A stretch of 64,000 bases of DNA from an uncultured Candidatus Saccharibacteria bacterium (GTDB lineage: Bacteria; Patescibacteriota; Minisyncoccia; Phycocordibacterales; PALSA-1337): contig CAYPPJ010000004.1 of NCBI GenBank assembly GCA_964412585.1, forward strand, positions 9,825 to 73,824. The letters are read 5' to 3'. Position numbers and translations under genes: made by a program. Below, piece by piece: positions 9,032 to 61,305 of the stretch. Below the pieces are notes generated by a model. That model ran no database searches. It was not told the origin of the DNA and saw only the letters and a list, made by a program, of their open reading frames with translations. Numbering within the stretch: position 1 is the first letter of the stretch; each line of letters begins with the position of its first letter.

Positions 9032-9190
9032 TTATGTAAACCTATTCCCCTTCCCACACCACGGACACCACCACTGTTTCTTTTTTGCTGGAGCATCACC
9101 TACTGACCACCACTTATCACAGTGGACACAGCGGAAATGACTGAGTTGTTCGATGGATCTCGTACCCTGTTTTTTACTTTTTTTCACCAT
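9032..9190 (-). CDS. Small zinc-ribbon protein (CxxC...CxxC)
   Basis: ORF 9032..9235 carries CVHCDK and CPWCGK motifs. The start was trimmed to an internal Met to reduce overlap with the upstream epimerase gene, but a 17-nt overlap remains. Confidence 0.35.
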   Translation of the reverse strand: MVKKSKKQGTRSIEQLSHFRCVHCDKWWSVGDAPAKKKQWWCPWCGKGNRFT

Positions 9191-10133
9191 GACAGATCTT
9201 GTATGCCACATCACTTCCACAGGGACATGGGCCATTCTTCAATTCTGCCATACCCTGCTCAATAGTGACCATCGGTTTCCAACCAAGTAGTTTCTTGGCT
9301 AGTGAATTATCAGCAAGCGTATCGCGAGGTTCAAGCCGCGCTGGAATATGAGCAACCGGACCACCGATAAGCTCAGCAATGCGTTTGATAGATTGGTTTT
9401 TACCTGCCCCGATATTTATTGCCTCTCCTGCACCGACCTTTGTGCTTTTCATAGCCAACATATTCGCACGGACAACATCATGGACACTGGTGAAATCGCG
9501 AGTCTGCTTACCATCACCGGTGATAGTCATCGGCTTGCCCTGTGAACGAAGCTTCATAAAACGGGCAATAACCAAGGCATACGCACCTTCACTGCTCTGT
9601 CGAGGGCCGTAGACGTTAAAGTAACGCAGAGAAACGGTCTCAATGCCATATATATCGCTCCAAACCTTGCAATAGAGTTCGCCGATATATTTCTGAAGAC
9701 CATAGGGACTCTTTGGATTGGCAGGGGCTGTTTCCTGAAGCGGCATGTGTTTTTGGTCACCATAAGCCGAACTGGATGCTGAATAGATCACACGCTTGAC
9801 CCCTGCCGCCTGAGCAGCAACCAAGACGTTGAGAATACCATTGACGTTTGCCGCATGGGCCTCGAGTGGATGCTCGATTGAAAACTGGACGCGAGGCAGT
9901 GCGGCCAGATGAAAGACAAAAGTTGCCCCACGAAAAATAGGCTTAATAGAAGGCAGGTTGGTAATATCCTTCACATGCAAAGTTGCACGAGGATGAACAT
10001 TGGACTTCTTGCCAGCCGAAAGATTGTCAATAACATGCACGTCAAAACCGTCCTCAATCAATCGACTAGTTAGATGTGAGCCGATGAATCCTGCACCCCC
10101 TGTAACTATGACTTTTATTTTCTTTCTCGACAT
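9174..10133 (-). CDS. NAD-dependent sugar epimerase/dehydratase (GalE-like SDR) carrying a C-terminal SEC-C zinc-binding motif
   Basis: Rossmann motif VTGGAGFIGSHL, catalytic YxxxK (YGLQKYIGELYCK) and a C-terminal GPCPCGSDVAYKICHGEKK tail. Confidence 0.8.
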   Translation of the reverse strand: MSRKKIKVIVTGGAGFIGSHLTSRLIEDGFDVHVIDNLSAGKKSNVHPRATLHVKDITNLPSIKPIFRGATFVFHLAALPRVQFSIEHPLEAHAANVNGILNVLVAAQAAGVKRVIYSASSSAYGDQKHMPLQETAPANPKSPYGLQKYIGELYCKVWSDIYGIETVSLRYFNVYGPRQSSEGAYALVIARFMKLRSQGKPMTITGDGKQTRDFTSVHDVVRANMLAMKSTKVGAGEAINIGAGKNQSIKRIAELIGGPVAHIPARLEPRDTLADNSLAKKLLGWKPMVTIEQGMAELKNGPCPCGSDVAYKICHGEKK

Positions 10134-10144
10134 TGTGTAAAAGA

Positions 10145-12778
10145 TTACTTACCAACACCATGACACTTCTTGTATTTTTTACCACTTCCGCATGGGCAGG
10201 GGTCATTTCTACCAACTTCAGGCTCTTTTGAGATACTTGACGAGGCCTTGGCGGAACCATCCCCCGCACCAATGATCTGAGCATTTTCTTTTACTTCTTT
10301 GAGATTTTTTGGCTGATTGTCTGTCGGTATGCCATTTACCATCGGTACAATGTGAGGCCAAACTTTCATGACCTGTGCCTGCATAGCTGTATTCATTTCT
10401 TTGAAAAGACGGAGACCCTCCTTTTTGTATTCAACCAATGGATCTCGTTGACCATAGGCACGCAGGTTGACGCTCGAACGCGTATAATCCATGACCTCGA
10501 GATGCTCGACCCAATACATATCGATAGCTTGCAAAAGTACAACACGAACAGCATTGAAAAAGTTATCGCGGCCAAATTTATCAACTTTTTCTTGTATAGG
10601 TGCGCTAAAATCAACAGGGGCAAATTCAATCGCCGGCCTCGCATGTGCCAATCTTACAGATTCGAATGCATCATTACGCTGTGAGGAAGGCGACCCACTT
10701 AATATAGCTTTAAGCTCATGTTCAACATCATCAATGTTCCCGAGCAACAGTTTCCTGCGACGTGCGTAGACACTCTTTCTCTGTGTATTGATAACATCGT
10801 CAAACTCCAGAACGTGTTTGCGTGAATCGAAGTTGAATCCCTCAATCTTTTCCTGCGCACTTTCGAGAGAGCGGGAAATGAGTTTGTGTTCGATCGGCTC
10901 GTCTTCAGCCACACCGAGTTTGCCCATCATAGACTTCATCATGTCCGAAGCGAAGACACGCATCAGAGTATCCTCCATAGATACGAAGAACTGCGTCTCA
11001 CCTGGATCTCCTTGGCGGCCAGAACGACCACGGAGCTGGTTGTCGATACGGCGTGCTTCGTGGCGTTCAGTTCCGAGGACGAATAAACCACCAACCGACT
11101 TTATTTCTTCGTAAAGTTCTGGGGTATTCGGGTTGCCACCGAGCTTGATATCGACACCGCGACCCGCCATGTTGGTAGCTATAGTGACAGCTCCCTTTTT
11201 TCCTGCTTGGGCGATAATCTCACCTTCACGCTCGTGGTTCTTGGCATTGAGCATCTGGTGAGGTACACCTTCTGCCTTCAAAAATTGTGAGAGTAACTCG
11301 TTTTTTTCAATCGAGACAGTGCCAATAAGAACAGGTTGCCCTTTTGCATGCAGCTCTTTTACTTTACGCGAGAGAGCCTTGAATTTACCCAACTCCGTTT
11401 GGAAAATTTGGTCATTACGGTCGAGACGGACTGGCTGTCGATTGGTAGGCACCACGCAGACTTCAAGACCATAGACTTTGAAAAACTCCTCTGCTGAAGT
11501 AGCAGCTGTACCTGTCATACCAGAAATCTTTGGGTACATACGGAAAAAGTTCTGGAACGTGATAGAGGCGTAGGTGCGAGACTCTTGCTGGACACTGACT
11601 CCTTCCTTTGCCTCAATAGCCTGGTGCAGACCATCGGACCAGCGGCGGCCTGGCTGCATACGACCGGTAAATTCATCGACAATAACAATCTGATTGTCCT
11701 TCACGACATATTCCTTGTCCCTCTGATAAATGGCCTGCGCCTTGATGGCAGTCTCCAAATGATGAACAGACTTGATGCCCTTGTCAGTATAAATATTATC
11801 AACACCAAGCATTTTTTCTGCCTTGGTGATACCGTCTGAGGTAAGTGAGATCGATTTGAACTTTTCATCGACGGTATAATCCTGGTCTTTAACAAAAGAA
11901 AGGACCATTGATGCAAACTGCTTGTAGGTCGTTTCAGCATCCCTCGTCGGAGCAGAAATAATAAGTGGTGTACGCGCCTCATCGATAAGAATAGAGTCTA
12001 TCTCGTCGACGATGGCATAGTTTGGCTCGCGTTGGCGCAAGCGATCTGGCGTGTATTCGAGGTTGTCGCGAAGATAATCGAAACCAAACTCATTGTTTGT
12101 GCCATAGGTAATATCTGCATTGTATGCTTCCTTGCGTGTTACAGGACGAAGAAACTCATGGACCACCTTGAAAGCGCCTGTCTCATCGCGTTCTTTATCA
12201 GTCGCATCTGCGGAAATACCTTCGGGAGCCTTTTCTTTGTGAGTTGAATCATACAAATAACTCGCCTCGTTATTGAGCACGCCAACAGTAAGTCCAAGAA
12301 ATGAATAAATCTGACCCATCCATGCCGCATCACGACGTGACAAGTAATCGTTGACTGTGACCACGTGCACACCTTTTCCAGTCAGTGCATTGAGATACGC
12401 AGGAAGGGTCGCCACGAGAGTCTTTCCTTCACCAGTCCTCATCTCGGCAATAGCACCAGAATTGAGCGCCATACCACCAAGAAGCTGTACGTCAAAGTGG
12501 CGCTGACCGAGAGTTCGACGAGATGCTTCGCGAACAACCGCGAATGCCTCAGGAAGAATCTCCTGTAACTTCTCATCCATTTTCTTTCGTGCATCTTCAC
12601 CAGGTCTCAAATCTCCAACCTCTAGTTTCTTTTTAAATTCATCAGTTTTTGCACGCAGTTCGACATCCGACAATGATTTGATTGCCGGCTCAAAAGCGTT
12701 TATCTTGGCCACGAAAGGCTCAAATTCTTTGACGCTTTTGGTGTTGGAGCGATTGAAAAGCTTGGATAAAAATGCCAT
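10145..12778 (-). CDS. secA: Preprotein translocase ATPase SecA
   Basis: 878 aa with SecA DEAD-motor motifs and a C-terminal [14 protein letters not shown] zinc finger. The start was trimmed to [11 protein letters not shown], the canonical SecA N-terminus. Confidence 0.92.
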
Positions 12779-12810
12779 ACGTAGAGGGCACTTTATCACA
12801 GTTTAGGACA

Positions 12811-12856
12811 ATAAAAAAGTGGCCGGACGCGGTGGTTGGTACTCACCGCGCCGGCC
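12811..12856 (-). terminator. Rho-independent terminator: GC-rich 13/14-bp stem (GGCCGGACGCGGTG / CACCGCGCCGGCC) followed by TTTTTT on the minus strand, 33 nt upstream of the secA start codon
   Basis: Inverted repeat and T-tract read directly from the sequence. Confidence 0.7.
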
Positions 12857-13022
12857 GACGCTAACACTACCGCACTTCAGTCGAACAACAATTCAATGAA
12901 GCGCAAAGCTCGAGTGAAGCTACATCCTCTAGGAAAGCCTTGAAGGAAACAAGGTGCGGGGTGCGAGATAAGCTATGGCTCACGCTTTGAGGAAAAACGT
13001 TTTGCCGCAATCAGCTTACGCC
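12857..13022 (-). ncRNA. Candidate structured leader or small RNA between murB and secA, about 210 nt counting the terminator, bounded by a sigma70-like promoter and the intrinsic terminator
   Basis: No credible ORF. Promoter-like TTGTCA-17-TAGTAT lies upstream and the terminator downstream. Family unassigned. Confidence 0.3.
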
Positions 13023-13029
13023 GTGGGAT

Positions 13030-13058
13030 ATACTAGCGCATCAAAGACAAACTGACAA
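13030..13058 (-). promoter_or_regulatory. Candidate sigma70-type promoter (-35 TTGTCA, 17-nt spacer, -10 TAGTAT) just downstream of the murB stop
   Basis: Sequence motif only. Confidence 0.35.
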
Positions 13059-13065
13059 TGCAGAA

Positions 13066-14094
13066 TTAATTCACCCATTCAACTTCACCTTCAATCACAA
13101 TCCCTGTTTTTTCTTTGACCAACCTCATGAGCTCATGTGCAAGTTCAACAACTTCTTCTGATGTTGAACCTGGTTTCGTCACAAGAACAAGTGCCTGCTT
13201 TTCATACACACAAGCATTACCTTTACACAGTCCTTTTACATTGCACACCTTATCCAGAATCCAGCCAAGTGAAACTTTGACGCGACCATCGGGTTCTGGA
13301 AAACCCGGTAATGCAGGATACGTATTCTTAAGTCTCATAAAGTCATCCGATGAAATGATCGGGTTTTTGAAAAATGAACCAGCAGTCCCCCACAACTTCC
13401 AATCTGGCAGTTTGCCCCAACGTATCGAAATCACAGCCTCTCGCACATCCCTGAGCGTTGGTTGGGCAATGTTCTTTTGCATAAAATAGTCAGCCACATC
13501 CTTGTATGACATGTTGAGCACGCCATGAGGGTCGAGAGCAAAAAATACGCGAGTGATGATATATCTGCCTTTTTCTTTTTTAAACACACTGTCTCGATAT
13601 GAAAATGCGCAATCAGCATTGACCAAATCAACAAACTGTTTTGTCTTAGTATCAAACGCTCGCACATTACTGACTACGGACCCCACCTCAGCGCCATATG
13701 CTCCGATATTCTGAACTGGCGCGGCACCGACAGTTCCAGGGATAGCCGACAGATTTTCTATACCATACAAACCACGCTCGACCGCATAGTCGACAAAATC
13801 ATCCCACTGTTCACCAGCACCTGCAGAAATAATGCGTTTGCCAACACTCCCTTCTTCAATTTTCTCCTCGATACCCATGAGTTCCATCTTGATGACAAGC
13901 CCACCAAATCCTTCGTCACCGATGAGAAGATTTGATCCTCCCCCGAGTATGAACAGTGGTAGGTCTTTGTCACGTGCAAAGTGTACCGCCTCTACGATAT
14001 CAGCCTCAGTTGTCGCACTACAAAAAAAGCGGGCCGGTCCGCCAATTTTGAATGTCGTGTAAGCAGCCAAGGAAATATTCTCTTGTATCGTCAT
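13066..14094 (-). CDS. murB: UDP-N-acetylenolpyruvoylglucosamine reductase
   Basis: FAD-binding N-terminus YTTFKIGGPARFF...ILGGGSNLLI and 342 aa, as expected for MurB. Confidence 0.88.
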   Translation of the reverse strand: MTIQENISLAAYTTFKIGGPARFFCSATTEADIVEAVHFARDKDLPLFILGGGSNLLIGDEGFGGLVIKMELMGIEEKIEEGSVGKRIISAGAGEQWDDFVDYAVERGLYGIENLSAIPGTVGAAPVQNIGAYGAEVGSVVSNVRAFDTKTKQFVDLVNADCAFSYRDSVFKKEKGRYIITRVFFALDPHGVLNMSYKDVADYFMQKNIAQPTLRDVREAVISIRWGKLPDWKLWGTAGSFFKNPIISSDDFMRLKNTYPALPGFPEPDGRVKVSLGWILDKVCNVKGLCKGNACVYEKQALVLVTKPGSTSEEVVELAHELMRLVKEKTGIVIEGEVEWVN

Positions 14095-14269: not shown

Positions 14270-14378
14270 ACCCAAGAGCACGGCACAGGTGTGTCAAAGC
14301 GGAAATAGTAGCTACCACTCGAACCGCATACCACATCGTTTATTGTAGCGGCGACACACCTGTGCCGTGCTCTTGGGT
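14270..14378. repeat. Long hairpin element A: perfect 26-bp inverted arms (ACCCAAGAGCACGGCACAGGTGTGTC / GACACACCTGTGCCGTGCTCTTGGGT) around a 57-nt centre that contains the core ACTCG...GCATACCACATCGTTTA
   Basis: Read directly from the sequence. The centre shares a 16/17-nt core with element B at 56093-56204. Confidence 0.6.
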
Positions 14379-53456: not shown

Positions 53457-55430
53457 TTACTCGACTTTCAACACCTGTTTGAGGACGTCCTCAGGAACTT
53501 CTGCAGGCTTTTGTTGTGATGGTTGATTTGGTTGTTGAGCCGGCTGAGAAGCTGGTACGTGTGGTTTTGGTTGAAGTGGAGGTGGCGCCGTCGGCTTAAC
53601 CTGAACTGGATCTACTTTCGCAATCGGTTTTAAATTCTTAAGCGAAGAAAGGGACTGGAAACCATCATCTGGCGGCAAATTCGCAGCCGCAGGAGCTACA
53701 GGCGTTTTCGCTGGCGTAGAAGGTGTAGAAGTTGCCTTTGGTGCCACGGCACTCGCCTGGGCTTTAGATTTACCCAGCGCAGCGGCCAGAGCATTCTTGA
53801 GATCATTTACATTCTGCGGCGAGGGAATCTTCGGATCTTGCTTTGTTGCCAGTGGCTTTGGGGCCAAGGTCGAAAGTGAAACAGGTTTTACCGGTTGTGG
53901 AGCAGGAGCAGATGCAGGAAGAATAGGCGCAGAAACAACTGGTGCAGGTTTCGCAATCAAGGCGGGCGCAGGTCTTGGATTTGCGGGAGCTGGCTGTGGT
54001 GTCGAACTGGATACAGGAGGTACAGCTGGCGCGGGTTTTGCCGAGCTCGCTGCCACCATATCAGATGCCGAAAGACGTGGCGGCGTTGCGGGTGCAGGGG
54101 GCGCCACGGCCGTCTTCTTTGCAGGCACGGACGGTTCATGGAATTTGACGATCTCAATCTCGACCTGTTCACGCGGTCGCGCAAACTGGGCTCGCGAAGA
54201 GTCGATAATCTCTTTGACATACGATGTATCTGGATGCGGAATCGGGCCAAGCGTACGCGCAGAAAATGGCGCCGATCCGAGTCCATCAATCATGAGTTTG
54301 AGGTAAATCTGCGCAAACCCGAGATTGACCAGATCTTCCATGGTGAATGTTGGCGCAAACTCTTTTTCCAACAACTCCGCATCAGTAGCTCCCACGCGGA
54401 ACGTGATCATTGTGCCAACGTTACCGAAAACAGCCGGACGCACCACTTCGTCCATTTGCTCTACATATTGGTGTGCAATCGTAAGGTTCAATTTGTATTT
54501 ACGAGCCTCCGAGAGAATATCGGCAAACGATGCATTAGCAAAGTTTTGGAATTCATCCACAAAGAGATAAAAGTTCGGCAACATCTGCATGACGCGATCA
54601 GAGACATCAGCACGAGACATGGCAGCTAGATACATCTTAGTCACCAAGAGACCGCCAAGCAATTTCATATTCTCATCACCAATCCTTCCCTTTGAAAGGT
54701 TTATGATGATAATTTTTCGGCTATCCATAGCTTCACGGAAATCAAAAGATGATACCGGCTGACCAATCATGTTGCGGATCAGTGGATTTGCAGTAAATTG
54801 ACCAACCTTGTTTTGAATAGACGGCACAGCTTCAGCCGCCATACGCTCAGTATAGTTCGCAAATTCTTTTACCCAAAATGATTTGACCGACGGATCGGTG
54901 ATATGCGAAACAATCTCTTTACGATACTCCTTGTCTGACAACATGCGATTCACCCCCAGCAGTGTAGTATTCGGAGCTTCGAGCAATGCCAACAGTGTGT
55001 TGGTCAAAATATATTCCATGCGCGCTGACCAGGCATCCACCCATATCTTTTTGAAGGTGCTCATCAATCCAGAGACGACAAGGTGGCGCTTGGTCGGATC
55101 AACACTTTCAAGGACGTTAAATGAAATAGGAAAATCCACATCGAATGGCGCAATGTGAATAACGTCTTTGATGCGTTCTTGTGGAACGTATTCGAGCAGA
55201 AGATCGGCCGTTTTGCCGTGAGGATCGATGAAGGCCATACCTTCACCATTTTGAATATCTTGCACAGCCATATTCTCAAGCAGAGTCGACTTTCCCATAC
55301 CCGTCTTTCCGATAACGTAGACGTGTTTGGTGCGGTCCTTGGCCTTGATGCCGAACTTCATCCGCTTGTTGCGGGCATCAGTTTCGGCAAAATATGTTAT
55401 GCGATTCTCATCGTTGGGAACGGGGATCAT
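53457..55430 (-). CDS. TraD/VirD4/DUF87-type (FtsK-HerA superfamily) P-loop ATPase, apparently cytoplasmic, with a long Pro/Ala-rich low-complexity C-terminal tail
   Basis: Walker A VIGKTGMGKST, Walker B LFVDEFQNFA and a TraG-D_C-like segment (EARKYKLNLTIAHQY...MITFRVGATDAE). No N-terminal TM helix. The C-terminal roughly 250 aa are P/A/S/T-rich. Confidence 0.65.
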   Translation of the reverse strand: MIPVPNDENRITYFAETDARNKRMKFGIKAKDRTKHVYVIGKTGMGKSTLLENMAVQDIQNGEGMAFIDPHGKTADLLLEYVPQERIKDVIHIAPFDVDFPISFNVLESVDPTKRHLVVSGLMSTFKKIWVDAWSARMEYILTNTLLALLEAPNTTLLGVNRMLSDKEYRKEIVSHITDPSVKSFWVKEFANYTERMAAEAVPSIQNKVGQFTANPLIRNMIGQPVSSFDFREAMDSRKIIIINLSKGRIGDENMKLLGGLLVTKMYLAAMSRADVSDRVMQMLPNFYLFVDEFQNFANASFADILSEARKYKLNLTIAHQYVEQMDEVVRPAVFGNVGTMITFRVGATDAELLEKEFAPTFTMEDLVNLGFAQIYLKLMIDGLGSAPFSARTLGPIPHPDTSYVKEIIDSSRAQFARPREQVEIEIVKFHEPSVPAKKTAVAPPAPATPPRLSASDMVAASSAKPAPAVPPVSSSTPQPAPANPRPAPALIAKPAPVVSAPILPASAPAPQPVKPVSLSTLAPKPLATKQDPKIPSPQNVNDLKNALAAALGKSKAQASAVAPKATSTPSTPAKTPVAPAAANLPPDDGFQSLSSLKNLKPIAKVDPVQVKPTAPPPLQPKPHVPASQPAQQPNQPSQQKPAEVPEDVLKQVLKVE

Positions 55431-56092: not shown

Positions 56093-56204
56093 AGCACACA
56101 GGGGCGCACACCTCCTCTTTCTTGAAGTGTAGAATGGTTTCACGTACTCGGCACACCACATCGTTTACACGCAAAGAAAGAAGAGGTGTGCGCCCCTGTG
56201 TGCT
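56093..56204. repeat. Long hairpin element B: 31-bp inverted arms with one mismatch (AGCACACAGGGGCGCACACCTCCTCTTTCTT / AAGAAAGAAGAGGTGTGCGCCCCTGTGTGCT) around a 51-nt centre containing ACTCG-GCACACCACATCGTTTA
   Basis: Read directly from the sequence; begins 6 nt after the stop of the glycoside-hydrolase-like gene. Confidence 0.6.
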
Positions 56205-60436: not shown

Positions 60437-61213
60437 ATGAATACCAAAATCCTCTCCAACCGAGCCCTTTCTGTTATCGATCAGTACCTCAATTTCAAGG
60501 TAGGACCTGCAGTGTGCTCGGTTCCTTATTTCAACAATAAAACTGCCAAACTTCGTGGCGCACTCGCGGTACATGCAGGCAAAGGAAGTCCGAAAGAAAT
60601 ATGTGAGGAAGTCCAATCCATTTTGCTCAAAGCACATACGACAGAAGACTCTCTTACTTCTGAATCACTCAAAAAAATTCTTGCTGATAATACTATTGGC
60701 ATCGATTGTTCTGGCTTTGCCTACTATGTTCTCAACGCGGAAAGTGAGGAGGCTGGAAAAGGACCGCTCGACAAGCACATCTCTTTTGTTCAAGCGACCG
60801 GATTATTTAGAAAATTGATTGCCTCATGGCGTCCTGTCGGAAATGTTGGAGTATCGACACTGGCTCACAACAACAATAGCCACATCATCAATCTTAAGGA
60901 CATCCAGCCTGGATCTCTCATCACGATGATCAACGACGCCGAAGAAAGCGAGCGTGACCACATTCTCGTCATCCATCAAGTTGAATACCAAAACTTCATT
61001 CCCTACAAACTCCACTATTCACATGCTGTCGCCTATCCCGAAGATGGCATTTACGGCACCGGCATCAAGCAAGGAACTATTGAGATAACCGATATAAACA
61101 AACCAGTCACCGAACAAGTCTGGACCGAAAATGGTCGACAAGGCGAGGCCAATCGTATTTTTCAAAGGGCCCTCAAATCAAAAACCGAGATTCGCAAACT
61201 CAACTGGTGGTAA
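60437..61213 (+). CDS. Hypothetical protein
   Basis: 258 aa with no recognisable motif. Confidence 0.45.
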   Translation: MNTKILSNRALSVIDQYLNFKVGPAVCSVPYFNNKTAKLRGALAVHAGKGSPKEICEEVQSILLKAHTTEDSLTSESLKKILADNTIGIDCSGFAYYVLNAESEEAGKGPLDKHISFVQATGLFRKLIASWRPVGNVGVSTLAHNNNSHIINLKDIQPGSLITMINDAEESERDHILVIHQVEYQNFIPYKLHYSHAVAYPEDGIYGTGIKQGTIEITDINKPVTEQVWTENGRQGEANRIFQRALKSKTEIRKLNWW

Positions 61214-61305
61214 GCGCGTAACAACACCTATTTTAATTGCCGAGGACTGTCTGAGCGAAGCGAGTTCCGCAGGCAGATTAAAATAGGTGTTGTGGAGCGC
61301 GTAAC
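61214..61305. mobile_element. MITE-like element C: 17-21-bp inverted arms (ACAACACCTATTTTAAT / ATTAAAATAGGTGTTGT) around a 39-nt centre, flanked by 9-bp direct repeats GCGCGTAAC (61214-61222 and 61297-61305)
   Basis: Read directly from the sequence. The direct repeats look like a target-site duplication. The element sits between a stop codon and the mraY start. Confidence 0.45.

Follow-up and report, generated by a model that had tools for sequence, protein, structure and literature searches.

The spacer between murB and secA in the analysed DNA (the window, 64,000 nucleotides in all) probably encodes a lineage-specific small RNA, self-transcribed and/or part of the murB 3′ UTR, and not a leader of secA. 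In the mechanism that we propose, a unit of ~212 nt would be transcribed from a TTGTCA-17-TAGTAT promoter, by read-through from murB as a 3′ UTR, or by both routes, and would end at a strong intrinsic terminator, the one with which murB transcripts end throughout the family. The body of the unit is an insertion that nucleotide-level selection has kept almost unchanged, and its most likely function would be that of a small regulatory RNA acting in trans via base pairing or protein binding. Expression of secA would not be regulated from the unit, since the gene appears to have its own extended -10 element 11 nt before the ATG.

Anatomy of the spacer and its terminator

An earlier note had described, on the minus strand, a promoter-like site, a non-coding stretch, a hairpin followed by U6 and the ATG of secA, and all of these features are present. 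In the order of transcription they are as follows.

13066..14094, minus strand: murB (UDP-N-acetylenolpyruvoylglucosamine reductase), the upstream gene, assigned from the Pfam domains FAD_binding_4 and MurB_C and from homologues
13030..13058, minus strand: sigma-70-like promoter candidate TTGTCA-17-TAGTAT, a 9/12 match with hexamers invariant across variants
12857..13024, minus strand: predicted non-coding RNA body of 168 nt, conserved relative to L082, single-copy and clade-specific
12813..12856, minus strand: intrinsic terminator, hairpin plus U6, with a pairing probability of ~1 and covariation across six spacers
12790..12798, minus strand: putative extended -10 promoter of secA, TGATAAAGT, invariant in seven spacers and 11 nt before the ATG
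10145..12778, minus strand: secA, with its ATG at 12778, Pfam SecA domains and an N-terminus that aligns with those of relatives

The murB stop codon (TAA, 13068-13066, minus strand) is followed after 7 nt by TTGTCA (13058-13053), a 17-nt spacer and TAGTAT (13035-13030), from which a transcript start at ~13024 (minus strand) and an RNA of ~212 nt are predicted. The SecA protein begins with MAFLSKLF at 12778; a GTG at 12799, taken from the ORF listing, was rejected as its start, being merely an in-frame upstream codon. Synteny of murB and secA is common in Patescibacteria/CPR, and the SecA and MurB sequences place the window within this group, among Paceibacteria-like lineages. Where the earlier note had delineated a promoter-to-terminator unit of ~210 nt, its anatomy, non-coding body and terminator stand, and its promoter match taken alone is at the level of chance. 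As murB is not followed by a terminator before the element begins, its transcripts must traverse the element, which is in any case also murB 3′ UTR.

The terminator consists of a hairpin of -29 kcal/mol (GGCCGGCGCGGUG/CCACCGCGUCCGGCC, 12856-12821) and a U6 tract (12818-12813). Its stem is GC-rich, with 13 bp, an 8-nt loop and one bulge, which is probably why a simple terminator scan missed the hairpin, and in the full RNA its predicted pair probabilities are 0.91-1.00 (about 1). Homologous terminators occur in the window and in the relatives L082, L083, L001, L093 and L095. Across these six spacers 94.8% of the cells of the helix are paired and four pairs are changed on both sides; the covariation score was reached by one of 500 shuffles, and a control in which the 3′ partner was shifted by 1-3 columns gave pairing of only 32-45%. 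The changes in L082 include a double change from G-C to A-U as well as a change from G-C to G-U. The terminator is thus ancestral in the murB-secA spacer of this family and older than the body that precedes it.

Transcription start of secA

Downstream of the terminator, an extended -10 element of the form TGnTAnAGT ends 11 nt before the secA ATG. Conservation across all spacers is highest in the ~35 nt past the terminator, with TG.TA.AGTG and TAC...ATG invariant in seven homologous spacers. The element is kept in relatives that have a different body, that lack the body or that lack the terminator, the last being the case in L097 and L002. Its position and conservation indicate that secA probably has a promoter of its own and yields a leaderless or near-leaderless mRNA. 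We also considered whether SecA might extend further at its N-terminus, from an upstream in-frame GTG or ATG, and rejected this. A 2-nt indel in L097 leaves the upstream ATG in a different frame from SecA; third codon positions would be the conserved ones, and the variable sites, the n positions of the promoter, would fall at first codon positions.

Of the 57 ORFs in the window, just 8 are preceded by an SD-like motif, and TGnTAnnnT is found 6-11 nt before the ATG of 10 of them, as against one at each of two control offsets. These counts imply that leaderless or near-leaderless mRNAs are likely to be widespread in this genome. Strong terminators (hairpin plus T-run) also stand 28-41 nt before the ATG of the genes starting at 55430 and 63623. 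Like the secA junction, these two have a GC-rich hairpin and T-run followed by TGnTAnnnT 6-11 nt before the ATG; unlike it, they lack an additional conserved body of ~170 nt, which the secA junction alone possesses.

This layout bears directly on the earlier proposal that the spacer is an attenuator or riboswitch leader of secA, in which a signal would decide whether upstream transcription stops at the hairpin or continues past it, thereby setting secA expression. The order of promoter, structured RNA, terminator and ORF does resemble an attenuator, and promoter-like sites past the murB stop are also found in L083, L001 and L093. However, the conserved extended -10 of secA lies between the terminator and the ATG and persists where the terminator is missing (L097 and L002), and the genome-wide layout is of the leaderless kind. 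We found no conserved antiterminator: the terminator forms with a probability of ~1, and when the RNA is folded in truncated form, its 5′ arm has other alternative partners in the window than in L082. Relatives with the same terminator and secA start lack the body or have something else in its place; it is missing from L083, L001, L093, L095 and L097, all of which keep secA and most of which keep the terminator. Nor did the Rfam scan that the earlier note had envisaged support a riboswitch or leader, since the whole 64 kb gave no gathering-level match to Rfam 15 (SRP, 6S, tmRNA, riboswitches and leaders). At E up to 10, the best match in the spacer was a eukaryotic 17-nt element (E = 0.12). 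A 6S-like rod and SRP domain IV were excluded by Rfam together with inspection of the predicted fold. We consider a leader or attenuator of secA very unlikely.

The spacer had also been suggested to exert control through a small peptide, and an encoded peptide such as a SecM-like arrest peptide is extremely improbable. The body holds no ATG ORF and no signal-peptide-like sequence; its sole ORF, of 47 codons, starts with TTG (13010-12867). In L082, which differs by a 1-nt deletion and a 1-nt insertion, the deletion shifts the frame and truncates this ORF, and all three substitutions within it fall at second codon positions and are non-synonymous. Comparison of the window with its relatives revealed no conserved ORF in the spacer.

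On the other side of secA, just downstream, an NAD-dependent epimerase gene (9174-10133, minus strand) ends in a SEC-C zinc-binding motif (PF02810, 24 bits), which is also present in relatives.

Conservation, putative transcription and distribution of the body

Set against that of L082, the body in the window shows 9 differences in 169 nt (~94-95% identity), and the spacer next to murB ~19 in 287 nt. In the same comparison the four-fold sites of murB are 64.7% identical (153 sites), and third-position identity is 0.46-0.57 over the final 43 murB codons, with 0.61 for the Wzy/TPR gene upstream. Conservation of the spacer and of the body exceeds that of the murB four-fold sites with a Fisher p of about 1e-12 to 5e-12, and the jump in rate coincides with the end of the gene, which speaks for selection rather than a recombination patch. 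To judge from these comparisons, the body is under purifying selection at the nucleotide level, and it is functional and non-coding.

The predicted fold of the body contains three or four local hairpins. Changes in L082 keep the pairing of hairpin 1 (A-U to G-U and U-G to U-A), and in hairpin 4 a G-C pair becomes G-U and a bulge is converted to a pair; one or two pairs of hairpin 3 are broken. These comparisons draw on four sequence variants of the body, of which one, L082, is usefully diverged. The body alone is predicted to fold no more stably than shuffled sequence (z = -1.05), and the value for the whole unit (z = -4.1) is owed to the terminator. Three copies of TTTCCT in the body are not significant, as 173 of 2000 shuffles hold some 6-mer three times.

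The 9/12 match of the upstream promoter candidate is not above chance, with 10 sites per 5 kb where 7 +/- 3 are expected, and the candidate is missing the TGn extension typical of this genome. Its conservation tells more: both hexamers are invariant in four sequence variants, 6 of the 24 non-hexamer positions between the murB stop and the -10 vary, and conservation sets in ~3 nt beyond the -10. At the aligned place L083 has TTGCCT-17-TAGGAT, and L001 and L093 carry the promoter-like TGTGATATAT and TGTGCTATCT after the murB stop. In L081 and L086 a 67-nt insertion directly upstream of the -35 leaves the unit intact. Taken together, the invariant hexamers, the aligned L083 site and the 67-nt insertion make a suggestive case for an own promoter, if not a proof.

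The same evidence weighs on the reading in which the element is murB 3′ UTR only and would, with no independent promoter, act in cis on the murB mRNA (through stability, processing or localisation) or yield a processed fragment. Such a role is consistent with the uninterrupted path from the murB stop into the element, with the chance-level promoter match and with the one or two hairpins that relatives also have between the murB stop and the same terminator. Hexamers that stay invariant amid varying neighbours, the aligned site in L083 and the tolerance in L081/L086 of an insertion between the murB stop and the -35 argue against it, leaving it a real but minor possibility. The independent small RNA, which the earlier note had offered as a fallback, is the best surviving explanation, its body being conserved far above the neutral level within a narrow clade. 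A second unit of similar style in the next intergenic region lends this explanation further support. We also searched for duplexes between the element and the 57 gene starts; the best was not an outlier, 6 of 40 shuffles being as good.

The element is shared by L082 (MurB 93% identical), by L081 (97%), where the contig ends inside it, and by the JGI contigs L086-L089 and L091/L092. It is absent from L083 (MurB 82%), which has a spacer of 165 nt, from L001 and L093 (76%; about 125-130 nt), from L097 (72%; ~50 nt) and from L095 (76%), which has a 263-aa ORF instead. The 168-nt body thus seems to be restricted to the nearest relatives, those with MurB at least 93% identical. With an ancestral terminator and a body found in this clade only, the body is a later insertion that separates the murB stop from a terminator already in place, and its absence at 82%, 76% and 72% MurB identity implies that any function is young and dispensable. 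The conservation or covariation of homologous spacers that the earlier note had looked to holds for the terminator, which covaries, and for the body in the nearest clade, but the body does not extend to further relatives.

No second copy of the element was present among the repeats of the window, and the covariance model R1 of the body, run on the window with filters off, found no other copy. Among 36 relatives' loci, R1 recovered only its source sequences and the partial copy in L081, and a blastn search of the spacer against 80 secA loci gave no match. A metagenome scan with the 18-mer CCTAGAGGATGTAGCTTC returned four chance matches with no flanking similarity, from a collection that also missed the element-bearing JGI contigs. 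In a protein search for further close relatives with the SecA N-terminus, the best match was 72%.

These searches also speak to a role at the DNA level, or to a young insertion such as a mobile-element remnant or a set of protein-binding sites, conserved for reasons unrelated to RNA. The cargo of the spacer does differ by lineage (the 263-aa ORF in L095, Lys-rich ORFs or hpf in distant relatives, the 67-nt insertion in L081/L086), and the body folds no better than shuffled sequence. On the other hand, the body is single-copy in the window and in the 36 relatives' loci, its 18-mer has chance matches only in the metagenomes, it has no terminal repeats, its stem substitutions preserve pairing, and nothing in it resembles the genes that relatives carry as cargo (ORF263, hpf and the Lys-rich ORF). 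A cause of this kind is quite unlikely.

The varied cargo merits description. The 67-nt insertion (L081 3111-3177; L086 4030-4096) begins right after the murB stop, is flanked by an 11-nt direct repeat, TGGGTGAATTA, and is polymorphic among near-identical strains. It contains GGATGTAAGTTCAC, resembling an internal motif of the element; GGATGTAGCTTCAC, loosely common to the element and the L081 insertion, has one copy in the window, which is the chance level. The ORF of L095 (4164-4955), of 263 aa, has no Pfam match and lies between murB and the conserved terminator. A small ORF rich in lysine (16-76 aa, KKAAKK-type), which has its own terminator, occupies the spacers of the distant relatives L003, L004, L005, L007, L008 and L011, and a perfect TTATCCACA (DnaA-box-like) is found just past murB in L003, L007 and L008. 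The spacers of L009, L011 and L026 hold an hpf/raiA-like gene.

Other non-coding features occur around murB and elsewhere in the window. The second promoter-to-terminator unit (14561-14457, minus strand) has TTGATT-17-TAGTAT with a TGg extension, followed by ~70 nt that end in a hairpin at 14478-14464, and has no Rfam match; from 14526 on it is 100% identical in L082, and four of the six nucleotides just before differ. At 14270-14378 there is a perfect 26-bp hairpin with a 57-nt loop, which L082 keeps with one compensatory change from A-U to G-C. A different long hairpin stands at this site in L081, L086 and L091, so that the hairpin behaves as a swappable cassette. The ~150 nt before the murB ATG (14255-14100, minus strand) are 100% identical to L082, with synonymous sites ~35% diverged; this segment may be a structured murB leader, and its matches in Rfam are weak and sub-threshold. 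Long inverted repeats are found at 56093-56204 (39-nt arms, 90% complementarity) and 61211-61303 (27-nt arms, 85%).

A bolder reading, which we regard as rather unlikely, holds that the body is a structured RNA, so far undescribed, of one Paceibacteria-like lineage, which would bind a specific protein or ligand in connection with cell-envelope genes. On this reading murB would be flanked by three or more ultra-conserved non-coding blocks, the others being the ~150 nt that precede its ATG and the ~70-nt promoter-to-terminator unit at 14526-14457. Together they would make up a small RNA-based control layer in a genome whose translation is not led by Shine-Dalgarno motifs.

Relation to known systems

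DapZ and MicL of enterobacteria are intergenic or 3′ UTR-type small RNAs whose own promoter lies close to, or inside, the end of the preceding gene and whose Rho-independent terminator also serves that gene. The candidate small RNA resembles this type in having a putative promoter where the preceding gene ends, a non-coding body within the 100-250 nt range, a shared intrinsic terminator and conservation in a narrow clade. It differs in its patescibacterial host. To our knowledge, Hfq-type chaperones have generally not been reported in Patescibacteria.

The resemblance to the translational arrest system secM-secA of E. coli is one of position upstream of secA only. The spacer analysed here has neither an ORF nor a co-transcription signal, no structure covers the secA start, and the promoter of secA appears to be of the leaderless type. 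Leaders that work by terminator and antiterminator (riboswitches, T-boxes and ribosomal-protein leaders) have in common with this spacer a structured RNA and a strong terminator close to an ORF. The spacer departs from them in having no conserved antiterminator and no Rfam match, in the placement of the putative ORF promoter after the terminator, and in the absence of the body from relatives that keep both terminator and ORF.

To the best of our knowledge, the regulatory RNAs of Patescibacteria/CPR bacteria are almost unexplored, and in the literature on sRNAs or leaderless translation in this group we found nothing beyond passing mention. As a candidate confined to a narrow clade, the element opens no long-standing question. 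In a compact genome of leaderless type, an ORF with a terminator directly ahead of it is not thereby marked as attenuated, which calls for caution in scans based on sequence alone. The murB-secA locus offers a clean and testable candidate, a non-coding unit of ~212 nt under strong purifying selection.
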